The notes under the pieces were generated by a model, which ran no database searches, was not told the origin of the DNA, and saw only the letters and a program-made list of their open reading frames with translations. From a virus (Duplodnaviria; Caudoviricetes), in IMG/VR virus record IMGVR_UViG_3300037424_000280, positions 1-28,691 of that record: a DNA stretch of 28,691 bases. One strand, given 5' to 3'. The number at the start of each line of letters is the position of its first letter. Position 1 is the stretch's first letter. This document shows positions 16,235-28,691 of the stretch, one piece after another. The translations under genes were made by a program, and so were the position numbers.

Positions 16235-16642
16235 TTAATCTTTACCATGTAAAACATTCAATTTGAAAATACCTGTTGTTGCGTTGATGTATTTAACTAA
16301 TTCCACGGTATCATAAGTAGAAGTTCCCTGTGCAATAGTTAATCCACCAGAAGCAAAATCAAACTGATCGCCCTCCATAGCTTTTGTAAGAGTACCTGAA
16401 CCTCCATCAGCATAAAATGTAGAGTTCACCGAATTAGGAACTAATACATACATGTCTTCTGTTGAAGCACTTGAAGCATAAGAAGCCTGAACAATACCCT
16501 TAAGATGATTTTGTGTAGTAGTGGTTACTGGAACATTGTCTGTTTCGTCATTGTAAATAAACATCCCTGCTGTATAAGTAGTTGATGCTTTACGTGGCAT
16601 TTTTGTCATTGACCAGTCCCTACTTGATGGTCTGAAAGCCAT
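16235..16642 (-). CDS. Head decoration/cement protein
   Basis: 135 aa, S/T/G-rich beta protein immediately upstream of the MCP, the usual position for cement proteins. Confidence 0.55.
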   Translation of the reverse strand: MAFRPSSRDWSMTKMPRKASTTYTAGMFIYNDETDNVPVTTTTQNHLKGIVQASYASSASTEDMYVLVPNSVNSTFYADGGSGTLTKAMEGDQFDFASGGLTIAQGTSTYDTVELVKYINATTGIFKLNVLHGKD

Positions 16643-16812: not shown

Positions 16813-16842
16813 ATTATATACACATTTTTAATTACTTTGCAA
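16813..16842 (-). promoter_or_regulatory. Sigma70-type promoter for the capsid genes
   Basis: TTGCAA (16842-16837), 18-nt spacer, TATAAT (16818-16813). Confidence 0.65.
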
Positions 16843-17488
16843 GTTCTTTTTCTTTTTTTGTTGTTATATATTTGTAACGGACTGCCCCCTTTAATAATTC
16901 TTTATAGTACATACAATCTTTAAAATCACTCCAATCTAATTGTTTAACATTTTTATAATCATTAGTTTTCTTTGTATCAAACACTTTTCCTTTTACATCA
17001 ATACCTAAATCTTCAAATAATTCATAAGGATTTTCGACTAAATCCTCTAATCTGTAAATCAAATCTGCATACCCTTCAATAAGCCTATTCCACGAAAGCC
17101 AATTATAAATATATCTGTCCATTAAACTTAATCTTCTTATATGGGGCATGTATAACTCCTTATACATAGAATAAATATTAGATTTAAAATTATAATCTTC
17201 AAATACTTTCTGATGACACAATGAACTTATTTGTTTTAAAGGATGTCTTATAATTTGTATTATAATCGCTCCTCTCTTTTTCTCTCTTTGTAAAAAAGGC
17301 GCTGCTAACCACGATACATCACCTATCATTCCTTCTCTCCATTCACCGAATCCAGGTGCACCAAATATTGTTTCATGCCCCATTATAACGCCCCCTTGTG
17401 TCATCAAATTAGCAAGAAAGTTTGTACCACTTCTCGCACATCCCGTTCCTATTATCGCAGGAAATTTTATATCTTTACGAATTTTCAT
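16832..17488 (-). CDS. PAPS-dependent sulfotransferase
   Basis: 5'-PSB loop IIGTGCARSGTNFLANLM, 3'-PB motif IIRHPLKQISS, and YRLEDLVENP. Likely start is ATG 17488 (MKIRKDIKF), overlapping the glycosyltransferase end by 14 nt. Confidence 0.85.
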   Translation of the reverse strand: MKIRKDIKFPAIIGTGCARSGTNFLANLMTQGGVIMGHETIFGAPGFGEWREGMIGDVSWLAAPFLQREKKRGAIIIQIIRHPLKQISSLCHQKVFEDYNFKSNIYSMYKELYMPHIRRLSLMDRYIYNWLSWNRLIEGYADLIYRLEDLVENPYELFEDLGIDVKGKVFDTKKTNDYKNVKQLDWSDFKDCMYYKELLKGAVRYKYITTKKEKELAK

Positions 17489-18110
17489 TAATATTGTTTT
17501 TAAAATCTTTATCATACCAGTATGTAACCGGTTCACCAATATGCTTAGAGTAAACATCAGCCATACACCAAACCTCTAAACCTAATTCACCAGCTCTCCT
17601 ACAAAAATTTATATCTTCGCTAAACTCTACCAATATTTCTTTTCCGTCAACCATTTCTATAGCATTTTCAAATTGAAAAGGAGCAGGGTATTCCTTGATT
17701 ATTTTCTTTAATGCTTTTGACTTTATAAGTGTGCTCGCCATTCCAACACCACCCACTCTTTGCGTTTCTTTTATTTCATTTATTCTATTAAAATCCATAT
17801 CATAAACAGCTAACTCTTTTTTGCCATTCCTACTAGGTATCGGACAACCAACAATATCTTTATCTAAAGCTACCATTTTTACTAGAATATCTTTACATGG
17901 AATTTGATCGTCATCGCAAAAAAACAAATAATCATTATCATGCATTAAACATTGACTTACCATTCCGTTTCTGGCTTTATCTATCATCAGTCTTGAAACA
18001 TAACCGAAATTCACAATACTATCTTCAGGTTTATCAAGTTGAATAAGCCTACTCATAACGCTTAATGGTATTTTTCCTGTAGCGCTTGGTATTGCTATCA
18101 TTATTTTCAT
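17475..18110 (-). CDS. GT-A fold (GT2-like) glycosyltransferase
   Basis: KIMIAIP, IDKARN, YLFFCDDD (DxD motif), GMASTLI, FSEDINFCRRA..LG..VW and HIG motifs. Confidence 0.88.
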   Translation of the reverse strand: MKIMIAIPSATGKIPLSVMSRLIQLDKPEDSIVNFGYVSRLMIDKARNGMVSQCLMHDNDYLFFCDDDQIPCKDILVKMVALDKDIVGCPIPSRNGKKELAVYDMDFNRINEIKETQRVGGVGMASTLIKSKALKKIIKEYPAPFQFENAIEMVDGKEILVEFSEDINFCRRAGELGLEVWCMADVYSKHIGEPVTYWYDKDFKNNINENS

Positions 18111-18520
18111 ATAGCTTTATTATTAGAATCAAGTTTTATATTATGATGTTTCTCTAGCATAACTTCGAAATTAATAGGGTATTTTAATCCACCTTCTTTG
18201 CGAATTTTAGTCCCGCTTATTTCTTCAGTCTTCTTATCCAGCCGTACTTGCTCAACCTTATATCCTACATCTCTACCATAAAATATACCCTCAATGTCAA
18301 GACATTTCTCAACTACTAATCGTCCATCACACATCTCCTCATCAAATTTATCCATGAACATTAAATATCTTTCAAAAATACTATATGGATTCTTTTTACT
18401 TTTCCTTGTATTCCTTATCAACACCAATACATTCTTCCCCTCATCTAACTTATTTCTAATAAGTTTAATATGCCCATCATGCAAAGGTTGAAAACGCCCT
18501 ACTGTAAGCCAAAATTTCAT
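18107..18520 (-). CDS. HxGH nucleotidyltransferase (cytidylyltransferase/NadM-like; candidate minimal ATP sulfurylase)
   Basis: GRFQPLHDGH and ISGTKIR signature motifs, plus NPYSIFER. ATGA overlaps with both neighbours. Confidence 0.8.
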   Translation of the reverse strand: MKFWLTVGRFQPLHDGHIKLIRNKLDEGKNVLVLIRNTRKSKKNPYSIFERYLMFMDKFDEEMCDGRLVVEKCLDIEGIFYGRDVGYKVEQVRLDKKTEEISGTKIRKEGGLKYPINFEVMLEKHHNIKLDSNNKAI

Positions 18521-18873
18521 AATGTTATGTTAAATGTTAAACCTTTTATATCCTCAAAAAGAACATCGTCATCACGTCTTTTTGCTCCTTCATGTGATAC
18601 TTGAATAAATTTTACAAAATGCTGGTTATCCCTCCACTCTTTATAAGGAGCTATTGCGCAAACAATAACAAAACTATTTCTAGCTTGAAGCGCACTTGCT
18701 TCATATAAAAGGTTATCACACGATTCCATTCTGTCATCTTTACTATAACCTAAATCAGACCACTTTTTTCTATATACGTCAGCATCAACTATCGGAGCAT
18801 TAAGTATCTCCGCTAAATATGTTGCTAATGTTGTTTTACCGCTACCACTAGCGCCACAAAGCCATATAATCAT
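18517..18873 (-). CDS. cysC: Compact adenylylsulfate (APS) kinase-like protein
   Basis: IIWLCGASGSGKTT P-loop, VDADVYR, DLGYSKDDR and VIVCAIAPY..WR match CysC motifs. Only 118 aa. Confidence 0.75.
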   Translation of the reverse strand: MIIWLCGASGSGKTTLATYLAEILNAPIVDADVYRKKWSDLGYSKDDRMESCDNLLYEASALQARNSFVIVCAIAPYKEWRDNQHFVKFIQVSHEGAKRRDDDVLFEDIKGLTFNITL

Positions 18874-23327: not shown

Positions 23328-25946
23328 TTACAAGGGGTCATTGGGATCAAAATTTGTTTCCTCTGTTATCACCACACGAGAATCACGTACTTCTGTTCTC
23401 ATCTGCCACACTATCGCCAATGCTATCAATAAATCCCAATGTTTAGTTTGTTCAGGATCAAATCTAATTTGACTTAAATCCTCTTTATCGTACGTCCTTA
23501 ATTCCCTTAAAAGAACTTCAGAATGTATCACTATCTGCCTCTCATTGATTGCATCATTCAATTCAAATAACATTTTAGGCTTACTAGCACCGGTTGTCAA
23601 CCAACCTAATTTCTTAGTGTCTTGATCTAAAACCTTGTCCTTTCTAATCTCCGTATAAATGTTATCGTATATATGCTTTAAGGTTGCTATCGTGGTATGC
23701 CCATGATTATTTCTTTCAGGAGCTATAATGCAAAAACCAAATTTGTCGCCCCAATTTCTAAGTTCGTGAGCGAAGATATCAGGTGGAATAGTATTAGATT
23801 TAAACTCTGCCACCTGTTCCATAGTTGTAAAGTCGAAGATAATAGCTGTCGAACTATCTTGTCCTACGCCTTCAGCTACATCAGCTCCAATCCCGTATTT
23901 ATGTGAAGCTTTAAAGCTTTTAAACAAAGTCCAATCTCCTATTTTTTTACCTTTTTCGATAAATTGTTTTTGCCACTCAAGAGCTGTTTGATTAAACAGT
24001 TTAGTACCGGAAGTTTCAAACGCTTCTTCCGGTGTGGTGGGGTATTCACGTTTCATATTATCTTTTTGCGTATTCTTCTCTATCAAATACCATTTAATCT
24101 GGCTATCAGTTAAATTATGCAACTTCTGATATTCTTTAATATCTTCAGGTATTTCAATATCAGCTTCAAGTTTATATTCTTCTTGTGAAGTCCAAGAATA
24201 AAAGAAGGCTTTAAAATCTTTATTAACTCTAGGTATTCCACGCTCCCACGCCTCCCAAAACATATCATTAAAATAACCCCAATCACCTTCAGCTGTGGAT
24301 TCTATATCAATCCTACCCCCTTCAGGTACAGAGGGCAGCGCACCGGTTATTATTTCATCTGCTTTTAGTGGATATTTTTTACATATCTTCCCGAACTCTG
24401 AATTATGAACCACTCCTGAAGTCGTAGTGTAACAGTGAGGGGGGCTATCTAAGGATATATCATATACAAATTCTGGATTCTTACATTCTTCGATTGATTT
24501 AATTCTACTCCAATAATATTTCTTCCCTCTCCTCCAAAACTTACGACCACAAAGACACAGCCCCATCTTTAATTTAATTTTTGAAAGACCGCTAGTATAG
24601 GTTGGTAAATCTAATCCAAAATACTTTCTAAACTTCCAATTACCAGCTCCATTTAATTTTATAGTCCATGTGGCTTGACAATTCCTACCATAATAAATGC
24701 CTGCTTTACGGTAATATATAGTTGGATATCCTAATCTTAACGAAATCATCAACAGTTTTATTTGATATATTATTTGACTTCTAACAGAAACAGCCGATAT
24801 CTCTCTTGTGTTAGTGAAACATCCATCACCATCAAAGTATCCAAACACTACGCCGTCCAAAACTTGCCTTTTATAATTCCATATTAAATCAGATAAATAC
24901 TTATTTTTACCACAGCCACAATGCCTTTTAACAAACTCGCACAGCTTTTTGCTATTTATAGTTATGATTGTAGTCCTGCTAGCTTTGGAATCATAAACCC
25001 TAAAAGAATTATAATATTTCTTAAACTTTTCTACCAACCTTACAACTTTTGCTGTTTCTGATCTATTAATAGACAATGTTAATTCAGAATTTCTTATAGT
25101 ACCCTCTGCTAAATAAAATCCTAACAAGTACCCCACCGAATAATCGTCTACATCTAATCCTTGACTTCTTCCGCTCCAATTTCGACTAGGGTAAGCTAAG
25201 TAATCACCACTCTTTAAGTCTTTTGCTTGCTTCCAAATGGGCTTACCAGACTTGTGTGTTCTTGCTAAGACACTATGATTGCCTGTTAATTTCAATGAGG
25301 CATAGTCGCCAAATACTTTTAACTCTAACATTTTTTCGCCTATTTCTTTGAACCTATTCTTTATTACTTTCTCTACCTTACTGAAACTACCATTGCCATT
25401 TAACACCTCCTCGCCATTCTTTATATCTTTTATTCTTTTCATACCGCCATTCTTTAACATAATCCTCGTATTCCCATCTAAGCAAACATGTAGTCTATGT
25501 ACTGTATCCGCACGGGTAGAAAGAGCAACCGAAATAGAGCTACCGTTATTAAATGAAAGTTCATTAGCGGAATCCACATTGACCAAATAACCTAAAGCTT
25601 CTTTTACCTCTTTAGGAAAATTATCCCAAGCTGTTTTTATTTTCTTAAATATTTTTTTAACAGCTTTTTCTTCATGGGCAATTATAACCATGTTAAAATT
25701 TCTATTAAAAAGAACGTCATCTAAGCCATCAATACAGGCATTTGTTGTAAACCCTAATTGGCGTGCTTTAAGTAAAATATTTCTGTACCAACACTCCTGA
25801 TTAAATTCTAACTGAACAGGGTTAGGCTTGTATTGAATTAAGTTTGCATTTTTATCAACAATTTTATAAAGATGTTCTAATCTCCATTGTTTATTGCCTA
25901 ATTCTTTTTTAACCTGTGGCGTGATCGCTTCAAGACTTAAGGGCAT
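23328..25946 (-). CDS. terL: Terminase large subunit (intein-containing)
   Basis: Walker A LKARQLGFTT. Walker B VHRLHV/SEFG is rejoined after splicing. Also IESTAEG, and nuclease-domain motifs GIGADVAEG, PERNNHG, HWDLLIA. Exteins total 511 aa. Confidence 0.95.
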   Translation of the reverse strand: MPLSLEAITPQVKKELGNKQWRLEHLYKIVDKNANLIQYKPNPVQLEFNQECWYRNILLKARQLGFTTNACIDGLDDVLFNRNFNMVIIAHEEKAVKKIFKKIKTAWDNFPKEVKEALGYLVNVDSANELSFNNGSSISVALSTRADTVHRLHVCLDGNTRIMLKNGGMKRIKDIKNGEEVLNGNGSFSKVEKVIKNRFKEIGEKMLELKVFGDYASLKLTGNHSVLARTHKSGKPIWKQAKDLKSGDYLAYPSRNWSGRSQGLDVDDYSVGYLLGFYLAEGTIRNSELTLSINRSETAKVVRLVEKFKKYYNSFRVYDSKASRTTIITINSKKLCEFVKRHCGCGKNKYLSDLIWNYKRQVLDGVVFGYFDGDGCFTNTREISAVSVRSQIIYQIKLLMISLRLGYPTIYYRKAGIYYGRNCQATWTIKLNGAGNWKFRKYFGLDLPTYTSGLSKIKLKMGLCLCGRKFWRRGKKYYWSRIKSIEECKNPEFVYDISLDSPPHCYTTTSGVVHNSEFGKICKKYPLKADEIITGALPSVPEGGRIDIESTAEGDWGYFNDMFWEAWERGIPRVNKDFKAFFYSWTSQEEYKLEADIEIPEDIKEYQKLHNLTDSQIKWYLIEKNTQKDNMKREYPTTPEEAFETSGTKLFNQTALEWQKQFIEKGKKIGDWTLFKSFKASHKYGIGADVAEGVGQDSSTAIIFDFTTMEQVAEFKSNTIPPDIFAHELRNWGDKFGFCIIAPERNNHGHTTIATLKHIYDNIYTEIRKDKVLDQDTKKLGWLTTGASKPKMLFELNDAINERQIVIHSEVLLRELRTYDKEDLSQIRFDPEQTKHWDLLIALAIVWQMRTEVRDSRVVITEETNFDPNDPL
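24402..25484 (-). mobile_element. Intein with LAGLIDADG homing endonuclease (361 aa, TerL residues 155-515)
   Basis: Starts CLDGNT, block B LKLTGNHSVL, LAGLIDADG motifs LLGFYLAEG and VFGYFDGDG, block F VYDISL, ends VVHN followed by Ser+1. Confidence 0.95.
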
Positions 25947-26325
25947 CTAGTATTTCGTTTAAATTTGTGAGTTTAACTTTCTTCTCGATCCTGCTTTTCA
26001 AAATATTATATTCTTTTATTGCTTGTATTTTCGCTTTAAAGTCTGCATCTTGTTGAATTAATTTACCTAATTGTTTATCAACAAAGCTATCATTCATCCC
26101 TCCTAATTCAATTAATTTATCTATCCTCTTTAATATCTTAGGGGTTTCTAACAAGCGAAAAGCCTGTACACTGGCCACTTTATAGCTGCCTTTCTTGTTT
26201 CTATCTAAACCAAACGCTTCAATATAACTTTGAACGCCATTACAAAAGAACTCTTTATCAGTAGCATAAAATTGACAAAACCTTTCTTGTTTTTCAGTTA
26301 ATCCTTTATCAGTAATTCTCCCCAC
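25930..26325 (-). CDS. terS: Terminase small subunit
   Basis: LTEKQERFCQFY...NGVQSYIEAFG...A.RLL..PKI..RI HTH-type TerS pattern. Overlaps the terL start. Confidence 0.85.
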   Translation of the reverse strand: MGRITDKGLTEKQERFCQFYATDKEFFCNGVQSYIEAFGLDRNKKGSYKVASVQAFRLLETPKILKRIDKLIELGGMNDSFVDKQLGKLIQQDADFKAKIQAIKEYNILKSRIEKKVKLTNLNEILDALKS

Positions 26326-26545
26326 TTAAAAACTTGTTAATATTTTTTTGAATTTTCCTATTCATTAAATAAACGCCCCTGTTATCTATCATAATTTCTT
26401 CGCCCATCTGCTCACAAATATCCTTCACCACATCTTCAAACACCTGCTTATCCCACCGAATCATATACCCACTAGCTGTAGTATCGCTCCTCTCAAACGA
26501 GAATTTTTTATATGTCTTTTTAATTACATCTTTAAGGGTTCTCAT
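26309..26545 (-). CDS. Hypothetical protein
   Basis: 78-aa ORF tiled in the operon, overlapping terS. Confidence 0.6.
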   Translation of the reverse strand: MRTLKDVIKKTYKKFSFERSDTTASGYMIRWDKQVFEDVVKDICEQMGEEIMIDNRGVYLMNRKIQKNINKFLSGENY

Positions 26546-26555
26546 AAGTATTTTA

Positions 26556-26801
26556 TTAACGCCCTCTGTTTTTAGATTTACTCATCACCCGTAAATTAGA
26601 CCTACTATTACCACCACCTTGCCTAAGTGGTCTTTTATGGTCTATATCTTTACCACGTACGGCGCTTACACCTAAAGCTTCAGTCATTATTCTGCGAGCC
26701 TGATTCCTTTTACTACGTTTTGCCTGTTCCGTTGGGTTATTAAATTTTTCCTTATTCTTATGATAATAATCGCCCATATACCCTTTTTTATTAGTTGGCA
26801 T
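26556..26801 (-). CDS. Small HNH endonuclease
   Basis: GKDIDHKRPLRQGGGNSRSNLRVMSKSKNR. Lies two genes upstream of terS. Confidence 0.85.
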   Translation of the reverse strand: MPTNKKGYMGDYYHKNKEKFNNPTEQAKRSKRNQARRIMTEALGVSAVRGKDIDHKRPLRQGGGNSRSNLRVMSKSKNRGR

Positions 26802-27009
26802 TATTTAAGTTGTTAAAAGACTGTTCGTACGCTTGAGCGTTTTTCAAATCTAAAATTGCTTCGGGCTGTAGTTCAAATGAAGAATTTTTCTTTTCGTTTA
26901 ATTTCTGAAAGAATTCATCAATCATCCCATGACACGCAAAAAAATCTCCGACAGTTATTTTCCCTACGGATTCAACTAAACCAGTATCGGTATTAATTTG
27001 AAGTATCAT
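26791..27009 (-). CDS. Hypothetical protein, first gene of the leftward operon
   Basis: 72-aa ORF with a TTAAC leader, downstream of a consensus promoter. Confidence 0.6.
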   Translation of the reverse strand: MILQINTDTGLVESVGKITVGDFFACHGMIDEFFQKLNEKKNSSFELQPEAILDLKNAQAYEQSFNNLNNAN

Positions 27010-27051
27010 AAAGAAAAGTTAATACATACTAACACACGTCAATACATTTTA

Positions 27052-27080
27052 ATTCTAAGGGGAAAGTTTAAATAAGTCAA
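27052..27080 (-). promoter_or_regulatory. Sigma70-type promoter for the leftward packaging/morphogenesis operon
   Basis: TTGACT (27080-27075), 17-nt spacer, TAGAAT (27057-27052). Confidence 0.8.
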
Positions 27081-27091
27081 GTAGATTTATA

Positions 27092-27120
27092 TTGACTTTG
27101 GAACAGAAATAGATTAACAC
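27092..27120 (+). promoter_or_regulatory. Possible rightward promoter for the replication genes
   Basis: TTGACT at 27092-27097, back-to-back with the leftward -35. The -10 at 17 nt is a weak TAACAC. Confidence 0.35.
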
Positions 27121-27137
27121 GGGGGTACAAAAATAAT

Positions 27138-27245
27138 TTTAACTCGCTAGTAAATGCAAATACATTTATATCCGTCAACTATCCCTTCAAAGGTCTAGCG
27201 AGTTTTGTTGGTAGTTGACGGATATAAGTATATTTAACTCGCTAG
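27138..27245 (+). ncRNA. Candidate antisense/pseudoknot regulatory RNA in the rep leader
   Basis: Perfect 16-bp stem 27166-27181/27212-27227. Loop CTAGCGAGTT (27195-27204) is complementary to the direct repeats TTTAACTCGCTAG at 27138-27150 and 27233-27245. Confidence 0.7.
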
Positions 27246-27249
27246 AACA

Positions 27250-28059
27250 ATGGCAAATCCCCAATTAGAAAACGGACATTTAGATATTGCTAATGAACTT
27301 GTCGACCAATTTGCTAAACATAATATTCCGGGTTCAGAAATGAGGATTATTTGGGCTATATGGCGAAAAACGTGGTGTTGGAAAGATGGAGATCGAAAAA
27401 AAGATTTTGACTGGATTTCCATAACTCAATTTGAAAAATTAACCGGAATAAAACGTGCAAATATTCATACAGCTATTAAGAGTTTGTTATGCAAAAACAT
27501 AATAGCAGTTGAAAATAGAAATGGAAAGCTCTTTTATGGCTTTAACAAACGCTATAACGAGTGGGTGTTATGCAAACGCATACCTATTATGCAAAAGCAT
27601 AACAAAACTGTTATGCAAAAGCATACACAGCTGTTATGCAAAAGCATACCCACAAAAGATAGTATTACAAAAGATACACTTAAAGATAAAAAATATATAA
27701 AAATTTTGGAAAAATTTAACAGCTTATGTAAAACCAGCTTTCGCATGACACCAGAGAAAAAAAAACAACTAGAAAGCAGATTAAAAACTTTTTCCATAGA
27801 GGACATAGAACAAGCTATAAAAAACAGATTAAGCGATTCCAGCTGCATGGGGCAAAATTCTACAGGTAAAATTTGGGCTAAAGACTGGAACTCACTCTTT
27901 CGTAATGATGAAAATTTAGACAGAGCCTTGAATTTATCTAATTCAATTAACTACGAAAGAGAATTTGAGGAATTAGGGATGATGAAATTTAAAAGAAAAT
28001 ACTCATTGGAGCTAGCACAGAAGTATTACACAAAACAGCAACAAAAATTACTTCAATAA
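27250..28059 (+). CDS. Phage replication initiator (lambda O-like N-terminal domain)
   Basis: MANPQLENGHLDIANEL...IWRKTWCW...DWISITQFEKLTGI...AIKSL pattern, central iteron-encoded linker, and helical C-terminal replisome-organiser-like domain. Confidence 0.85.
   Translation: MANPQLENGHLDIANELVDQFAKHNIPGSEMRIIWAIWRKTWCWKDGDRKKDFDWISITQFEKLTGIKRANIHTAIKSLLCKNIIAVENRNGKLFYGFNKRYNEWVLCKRIPIMQKHNKTVMQKHTQLLCKSIPTKDSITKDTLKDKKYIKILEKFNSLCKTSFRMTPEKKKQLESRLKTFSIEDIEQAIKNRLSDSSCMGQNSTGKIWAKDWNSLFRNDENLDRALNLSNSINYEREFEELGMMKFKRKYSLELAQKYYTKQQQKLLQ
27486..27648 (+). repeat. Iterons / probable replication origin inside the initiator gene
   Basis: TTATGCAAAAGCATA at 27587, 27611 and 27634, with one-mismatch copies at 27568 and 27487. 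Palindromic core TATGC-N4-GCATA. An A-rich tract follows. Confidence 0.85.
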
Positions 28060-28095: not shown

Positions 28096-28691
28096 ATGAC
28101 AATTAAAGATTTCCTAAAAGCTTTCCCTAATACCATCTTCCAGGTTTTTAAAGATAAAGGATCGGGGAATCCGCAACAATTTACAGAATACAATCAGGAC
28201 CATTTCCGCAAACTGAACGAACAGGGTTACGGCATCTACTTCACACCTAACGGATTCAAAGACCGCAGGAAGAAAGAAAACCTGCTAACACTTAACGCCG
28301 TATTCGCAGACCTCGACATAGCTAAGACCGGAGATGGTAGTACACCACAAGAACGCCATCAGTCAAAACTTGCGATTTTAGGCTGGTTAAAATCACGAGT
28401 GGTACCTCATGTCATTATCGACACTAAAAATGGATTACAGCCCATCTGGTTACTCCAGGAGGGCATATCCTTAGACCGACAGGGTGAGTATAAATCGGTA
28501 ATTGAAGGAATTATTTATCAAAGTACTAAAGTGGGGTGTGCCGGAGATCAGGTGAAAGATGTTAGTAGAGTGCTTAGGTTACCCAATTTCTTTCATATGA
28601 AGGAGGGACCTTATAGGTGTAGGGCTGTCTTTAATAATGTTCCACGTTATTCACTTGAAGAAATTTCTTTATCATTCCCACAGCGAATGAC
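28096..28691 (+). CDS. Partial RepB-like (AEP superfamily) DNA primase
   Basis: Open from ATG 28096 to the window end: MTIKDFLKAF...GYGIYFTPNG...NAVFADLD...DTKNGLQPIWLL...KDVSRVLRLPNFFHMK. Absent from the ORF track because it lacks a stop. Confidence 0.8.
   Translation, partial: MTIKDFLKAFPNTIFQVFKDKGSGNPQQFTEYNQDHFRKLNEQGYGIYFTPNGFKDRRKKENLLTLNAVFADLDIAKTGDGSTPQERHQSKLAILGWLKSRVVPHVIIDTKNGLQPIWLLQEGISLDRQGEYKSVIEGIIYQSTKVGCAGDQVKDVSRVLRLPNFFHMKEGPYRCRAVFNNVPRYSLEEISLSFPQRM

Follow-up and report, generated by a model that had tools for sequence, protein, structure and literature searches.

A hairpin leader with a loop complementary to an upstream start site is conserved ahead of lambda-O-like initiator genes in uncultured phages

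The lambda-O-like replication initiator gene (rep) of an uncultured phage is preceded by a real, conserved, RNA-level element, an uncatalogued variant of leader-ORF/antisense control of an initiator. In this rep leader, which lies in a 28,691-nt stretch of viral DNA that was analyzed whole (hereafter, the window), a small leader ORF (uORF) runs into a long hairpin, the loop of which carries an antisense word complementary to a target at the uORF start. It points to a common form of RNA-only control of lambda-O-like initiators in uncultured phages, present in about 1 in 11 of the rep relatives sampled and absent from Rfam. The explanation that we favor, at roughly an even chance of being right, is a self-closing translational switch, acting mainly in cis, in which rep would be made only while ribosomes read the uORF.

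The window is a partial phage genome from a virus record, about 63% complete, with a G+C content of 35%. Packaging and structural genes run leftward from 27009, and the O-like initiator and a primase-like ORF, likely in the same operon, run rightward. Rep displays both features of Phage_rep_O: it matches PF04492 with 59.7 bits (curated cut-off 28.7), and it contains internal direct repeats, which are likely origin iterons like those of lambda, where they lie within O. Cultured phages have only distant O relatives (<36% identity, 23 records), and no close relative was found for the putative portal protein of the window. Contigs from three DNA runs did not extend over its rep leader. Elsewhere in this genome, the terminase large subunit (23328-25946) contains an intein with a LAGLIDADG endonuclease domain, and a sulfate-activation/transfer cassette with APS-kinase-like, cytidylyltransferase-like, glycosyltransferase-like, and weak sulfotransferase matches sits among the head genes (16832-18873). 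Three small leftward ORFs precede the small terminase (26309-27009). Those of 72 aa, for which Atlas gave no usable family, and 78 aa are without family, and that of 81 aa falls in PHROG 4590 and shows, by eye, an HNH-like motif; none of the three resembles an HTH repressor.

The start signal of the window phage is TAAC. It is found shortly 5' of ATG in 17 of the 29 long ORFs of the window, 16 times at a distance of 8-11 nt (e.g., at the starts 555, 2381, 12661, 16642, 20919, and 28096), and a Shine-Dalgarno word precedes none of the 29. The phage that carries a related rep leader, L001, likewise has TAAC before ATG (15/37). The motif recurs at a lower level in 2 of 20 stretches from genomes of, or near, CPR-labelled MAGs (5/26 and 5/24), and in a Rep tree the Rep of the window groups, with a support of 98, with that of a contig labelled Saccharibacteria. 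From these two observations we infer, rather than observe, a CPR host. A Rep search of 401 genomes from the phylum of G001 gave four with a match and no new usable leader.

The leader and its surroundings are composed of the following features.

27092-27120, plus strand: possible rightward promoter, picked out by eye and uncertain, with a good -35 (27092-27097), a weak -10, and a 17-nt spacing.
27138-27150, plus strand: upstream target X1, a 13-nt repeat copy, of which 27141-27150 is complementary to the loop; it covers the TAAC of the uORF (27140-27143).
27154-27198, plus strand: uORF, a putatively translated leader ORF of 14 codons running through the 5' arm, with its TAG stop (27196-27198) inside the loop word.
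27158-27183, plus strand: 5' arm of the long hairpin (perfect core, 27166-27181).
27194-27204, plus strand: antisense word of the loop, able to pair with 10 nt of X1 and 11 nt of X2, and predicted to be partly self-paired.
27210-27235, plus strand: 3' arm of the long hairpin (perfect core, 27212-27227); its last nucleotide is the T of TAAC, 14 nt ahead of the rep ATG.
27233-27246, plus strand: downstream target X2, the second repeat copy, lying over the rep TAAC (27235-27238); its duplex with the loop has -17.7 kcal/mol.
27250-28059, plus strand: rep, the regulated gene, a lambda-O-like replication initiator of 269 aa (Pfam PF04492, E 4e-16; PHROG 277, E 2e-19).
27566-27650, plus strand: four 19-nt direct repeats within rep, likely origin iterons, found by repeat search.
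28096-28691, plus strand: primase/polymerase-like ORF 3' of rep, truncated by the contig end (PHROG 2478, E 4e-9).

The hairpin has a perfect stem of 16 bp (27166-27181 with 27212-27227), which extends to 26 pairs (27158-27183 with 27210-27235) including two G-U pairs and one C-A mismatch. The leader region folds with -50 kcal/mol (z = -6.8), a value that none of 200 shuffles equals. The loop word CTAGCGAGTT, at 27195-27204, occurs once in the window, and its complement AACTCGCTAG only at 27141 and 27236. The upstream copy pairs with the loop over 10 nt (-15.5 kcal/mol) and the downstream copy over 11 nt (27236-27246 with 27194-27204), ending 4 nt before the rep ATG at 27250. Since the uORF starts just 3' of the upstream copy, with the TAAC-to-ATG spacing of 10 nt that is commonest in this phage, X1 and X2 each lie over a TAAC start, that of the uORF and that of rep. 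This copy/complement/copy pattern of 10 nt is not due to chance, because 2,000 dinucleotide shuffles of 27060-27300 gave at most 8 nt. The stem and its extension, both flanking copies, and the overlap of the downstream one with TAAC had all been pointed out in a first-pass annotation of this DNA and hold at every coordinate, whereas the uORF was absent from it. That annotation also had the loop displaying its word; the position is right, but the word is not fully open, since the folding model has part of the loop paired on itself and puts the cost of opening the word at about 6.3 kcal/mol.

As for transcription of the leader, a promoter scan called no plus-strand site in this region, a terminator scan of 26900-27400 gave no terminator-like site, and a minus-strand promoter consensus at 27256-27227 is at chance level (2 found, 2.2 expected). 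Upstream of the leader, a 7-bp inverted repeat (27074-27098) forms two back-to-back -35-like hexamers 11 nt apart, the leftward of which has a good -10 (27080-27052); this repeat could correspond to divergent promoters or to an operator.

Relatives of Rep were gathered from viral, metagenome, and genome collections, and their leaders were examined with a detector that accepts a stem of at least 13 pairs ending no more than 50 nt from the start codon, with a loop of 12-55 nt. The match is the longest Watson-Crick pairing that the loop can form with the 45 nt preceding the stem, and it counts from 8 nt upward. As a control, the detector was also run on the leaders of every other ORF at these loci. 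Rows without a locatable start codon, with <170 nt upstream, or with a duplicate leader were dropped, which left 215 leaders from 250 loci (window included), 53 from 80, and 31 from 76 in three successive sets. The thresholds were set after a first look at the data; the second and third sets are out of sample, although the search query for the second was built from element-bearing Reps. The architecture is present in 18 of the 215 rep leaders of the first set (the window being one of the 18) versus 1 of 1,361 other-gene leaders. With the thresholds fixed, the second set gave 9/53 versus 2/433, and the third 1/31 versus 0/209 (5/31 versus 2/209 at 7 nt). In the three sets together, the element thus precedes 28 of 299 rep genes and 3 of 2,003 other genes.

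The matched words differ from phage to phage in almost every one of the 28 cases. Moreover, members are scattered on the Rep tree, with 23 label changes for 27 rows among 267, and are therefore not near-copies. Complementarity is thus kept in relatives through changed letters, although mainly between loop and upstream target; the downstream copy, which the first-pass annotation had presented as part of the design, is clear in only 3 of 27 members. With a separate word and matched partners in each phage, the element lends itself readily to compensatory-mutation tests. A covariance model built from four members was poor, since MAFFT misaligned the stems and left eight consensus pairs, so the word changes carry no formal covariation score; in 100 sources, the model recovered only its four training sequences. 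A scan with the loop-flank pattern found only the contig of L402, one of these relatives, and four chance matches, and a scan for a repeat-plus-ATG DNA pattern was too loose, returning 120 loci, none with the architecture at >9 nt.

In the 27 members of the first two sets, the upstream target is tied to a start codon. An ATG or GTG lies between 12 nt before and 6 nt after it in 26 of 27 members, when 5,000 shuffles gave a mean of 14.8 and a maximum of 24; this interval was fixed after the first 23 cases and held out of sample in 8/9 members of the second set and 1/1 of the third. In 24 of 26 members, no stop interrupts the frame that begins there before the end of the 5' arm (shifted frames, 8 and 12), and in 15 of 26 its stop falls between -16 and +17 relative to the rep ATG (shifted frames, 3 and 6). 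The stem itself ends a median of 14 nt before rep (range, 1-44 nt; 27 members). In 12 of 27 members, a sigma70-like promoter ends 4-9 nt before the uORF start, versus 45 of 667 control start codons, a comparison in which each family member could use the best of as many as three starts. Such a promoter would place the target at the 5' end of the RNA, suggesting that in these 12 members the uORF is leaderless, at the very 5' end.

The non-Watson-Crick positions of the stems, in the 27 members, are G-T 19 times, A-C 3 times, and other 10 times (G-T versus A-C, p 9e-4). This excess of G-U favors plus-strand RNA, although it is not free of selection bias since the detector accepts G-U in stems. It is at odds with the idea that the three 10-13 bp copies function as DNA, whether as operator sites or as a single-stranded structure used in replication. 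A protein could bind to direct-inverted-direct copies located close to a promoter and an origin, but a DNA-level role would account neither for the strand-specific G-T excess nor for the link to start codons and open frames; in addition, the likely origin is the iteron array inside rep, and most members have two copies only. We consider a DNA-level role very improbable. Of the control of rep translation that the first-pass annotation had envisaged, what stands is an RNA-level, plus-strand element over an O-like initiator. Its main conserved partner, on the other hand, is the upstream copy at the uORF start and not the copy at the rep start.

Several side observations were made in the family. 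A DnaA-box-like 8-mer lies upstream of the leader promoter, within 110 nt of the target, in 7 of 27 element-bearing leaders (L232, L258, L295, L409, L412, L417, and L460, the window being without one) versus 3 of 236 others, the compared windows differing slightly; host DnaA may gate rep transcription. In a second sub-type (L232, L297, L203, L281, and L296), the loop matches 10-20 nt over the first uORF codons, and since only 0-10 nt separate target and stem, the two helices look mutually exclusive. The hairpin/upstream-word layout also occurs, with genes labelled by eye, before an HNH-like gene 415 nt upstream of rep (L419:3396-3588), a small gene 1.8 kb upstream of rep (L326:3026-3218), and a helicase-like gene (L424:613-805).

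The window belongs to a three-copy sub-type. Together with L001, L242, and L402, it shares a layout with a TAAC-like signal, a variable word, an ATG 10-13 nt after the match start, and a long stem, and in all four the loop ends in the complement of the TAAC-like signal. No two of the four words are related, and every loop matches the word of its own leader. Over the rep start, the window, L001, and L242 have a clear second target (-17.7, -17.6, and -17.1 kcal/mol; p 0.005, the lowest value that 200 shuffles can give), L128 has a weak one (p 0.02), and the remaining 23 members, L402 included, have none; no further three-copy case was found among the 31 rep leaders of the third set. In the three phages with a clear second target, the uORF terminates at or next to either the loop word or that target. 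As the loop has been kept complementary to the TAAC stretch at two start codons in three divergent phages, this sub-type provides independent evolutionary support for TAAC plus spacer as a ribosome-loading site in hosts without Shine-Dalgarno signals.

How might such a leader operate? In the switch that we favor, a ribosome would load at the uORF while the transcript is still growing and the loop word, some 55 nt further on, has yet to be made. It would then traverse the 5' arm, hold the hairpin open, and hand over to rep; in the window phage, it would stop on the loop word, keeping the word off the rep start. Once ribosomes no longer load, the hairpin would close beside the rep TAAC and the loop would capture a start site, that of the uORF near the free 5' end in all members and, as a second lock in the three-copy sub-type, that of rep. 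The transcript would then be silent, and initiator output would amount to a short burst per transcript, dependent on the translation activity of the host.

Folding the growing transcript stepwise is consistent with this order of events. At lengths 27200-27212, the predicted fold is an X1:loop helix stacked on a hairpin that hides the uORF AUG, and from 27218 the long hairpin replaces the X1:loop helix. Action in cis is favored because the X1:loop fold forms as soon as the word is made, because, by a rough estimate, a cis knot on the finished hairpin is within reach in 25 of 27 members, and because the target lies near the free 5' end; the lack of a terminator, the rarity of CCA after the stem (within 6 nt in 1 of 27 members, the window not among them), and the absence of extra targets in the own genome (11 genomes) point the same way. 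The same early helix could be read in the opposite sense, as an ON state that forms first, holds the word off the rep start, and hinders the long hairpin until refolding, by analogy with the ColIb-P9 pseudoknot; a 26-bp stem would presumably be slow to wind through a closed loop of 44 nt. That reading leaves unexplained why the target sits on a uORF start and why the frame is kept open, the long stem is about 15 kcal/mol more stable, and there is no excess of minus-strand promoters from which an Inc-like antisense RNA could come (6/27 members versus 36/241 others). We rate an ON state as decidedly unlikely.

An equilibrium model is less kind to the self-closing switch. Opening the rep start from -25 to +13 costs 12.3 kcal/mol, compared with a median of 7.2 for 23 other genes, but an ordinary 8.6 kcal/mol when counted from -20 to +13. 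A ribosome footprint on the 5' arm lowers the cost only to 9.3-10.5 kcal/mol, as X2 then captures the freed word or the lower stem closes again, and a footprint at the uORF stop codon leaves it unchanged. Simple melting hence does not explain activation in the window phage, where activation would have to be kinetic. Further points against the switch are that 54 nt separate the uORF stop from rep in the window, whereas in 15 of 26 members the uORF ends close to rep, that no clear rightward promoter was called, and that the loop word is partly self-paired.

Termination has also to be weighed, in that the hairpin might be a terminator, or a Rho trigger, set by uORF translation and loop-to-upstream pairing. 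A run of at least four T around the 3' end of the stem in 16 of 27 members, loops of only 12 nt in several, and the location of two of the three control matches (L326 and L419) before a gene upstream of rep, on the rep strand and leading the rep operon, would suit such attenuation. However, these sequences are AT-rich, most loops exceed 20 nt, and the longest run in the window, L001, and L402 is 3 T. The features of an intrinsic terminator, a GC-rich short-loop hairpin followed by a U tract, are thus not found in the window, in line with the terminator scan, although some relatives do have T runs. Attenuation is, in our view, quite unlikely, barely ahead of the ON state.

The same parts could work in trans. 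The leader would then give rise, by cleavage or termination, to a stable hairpin RNA of about 78 nt that accumulates and binds through its loop to uORF and rep starts on other transcripts, a possibility that we hold to be real but doubtful. The outcome, to which we attach the same doubt, would be phage-specific copy control or superinfection immunity, as for P4 CI with seqA/seqC. The window has target, word, and target on one strand, as in P4 (PMC4825925). Furthermore, the word varies among phages, as expected of a specificity determinant, and one loop cannot hold both targets in cis. Longer stems go with shorter linkers (rho -0.44, p 0.02; 27 members) and two of 27 members fail the reach estimate, neither of which is predicted by a cis knot; linkers that shorten as stems lengthen suit trans pairing or sequential folding better than a standing knot. 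Among viral records with the element, none of 15, and 0 of 3 near-complete ones, has a tyrosine integrase above cut-off, and no resolvase or S24 repressor domain was found in five.

Other evidence speaks against a released RNA. Neither a terminator-like site nor, in 26 of 27 members, a CCA end is there to define it, no C4 or IsrK model of Rfam matches, and a pairing of only 10-11 bp must repay the cost of opening the word. In 11 genomes, loops find targets among the other start regions of their own phage no better than among foreign ones. The start of ORF 16235-16642, which matches the loop with -15.5 kcal/mol, was rejected as a trans target on these grounds. The first-pass annotation had noted that no protein repressor gene lies in the divergent region, which is borne out by Pfam, PHROGs, and Atlas. 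The contig is incomplete, though, and HTH_3 proteins above cut-off are encoded in 3 of the 15 element-bearing records, once as a divergent pair, so RNA does not always replace a repressor protein; the phages may also simply be lytic. A related and rather doubtful idea, marginally more so than a trans-acting RNA in general, is a class of replication control, widespread among phages and uncatalogued, in which the leader counts itself, released hairpins with a phage-specific loop word blocking in trans the leader-ORF start of like transcripts and, in the three-copy sub-type, the rep start too. If true, such a leader would provide copy control and immunity without a repressor protein or an antisense gene, and the three-copy sub-type would be aimed at the TAAC that replaces Shine-Dalgarno in a probably CPR host.

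Comparison with known systems places the rep leader between two groups. The C4 RNA of P1/P7 (RF01695) has a multi-stem fold and lies upstream of kil/icd-ant genes. The rep leader, in contrast, is a single long hairpin directly preceding an O-like rep and a primase-like ORF, mostly lacks CCA after the stem, and has no clear downstream target in 24 of 27 members. In P4 CI/C4, the antisense word and its targets, upstream and downstream, are on one strand of one transcript and control replication or lytic genes (PMC4825925 and PMC3632133), and CI/C4 RNAs are processed by RNase P (PMC5499578). The likeness to P4 CI with seqA/seqC and to P1 C4 drawn in the first-pass annotation is a fair analogy as far as target, word, and target on the same strand are concerned. 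Only the window, L001, and L242 have both targets, however; in most of the 24 further members the upstream one stands alone. The Rfam 15 covariance models, C4, c4-2, and IsrK among them, gave no match at E<=1 in the window. Ten related loci gave one irrelevant snoRNA match (E 0.97), and ten more none at the gathering score. On the features tested, the rep leader is not a member of the C4/CI or IncI families. In the literature searched, which covered few subscription papers and was screened at the level of abstracts, neither the element nor the TAAC start signal is described.

On the plasmid side, translation of a leader ORF in ColIb-P9 (IncI-alpha) licenses a repZ initiator hidden by structure, and a hairpin loop pairs at long range; that pairing is downstream and activates, while a separate Inc RNA from the opposite strand represses (PMC4705826). 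Like ColIb-P9, IncB, and IncL/M, the window has a leader ORF, presumably translated, upstream of rep. In the rep leader, by contrast, the conserved pairing joins the loop to the leader start upstream, and minus-strand promoters show no enrichment. Where the first-pass annotation had invoked the IncI pseudoknot, the downstream copy of the window extends over the start signal and over the spacer up to 4 nt from the ATG, and should therefore block, unlike the activating pairing of ColIb-P9, which leaves the start signal free. In the CopA/CopT-tap-repA system of plasmid R1, antisense pairing reportedly blocks translation of the leader peptide and hence of the coupled initiator, as Blomberg is said to have found in 1992. 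CopA is a countertranscript, whereas the antisense word of the rep leader is within the same mRNA. The IsrK RNA of Gifsy-1 is a leader RNA that acts on its own long isoform via a uORF coupled to the next gene (PMC4825925). The rep leader similarly joins a leader RNA, a uORF, and a next gene, but IsrK, a seqA homolog, activates, is in Rfam, and targets an antirepressor-like gene and not an initiator. The rep leader would thus appear to work like a hybrid of P4 CI/P1 C4 and of plasmid leader-peptide control as in ColIb-P9 and R1, combining the principle of P4/P1 immunity, an antisense word on the strand of its targets, with the coupling of plasmid rep genes to a leader peptide.
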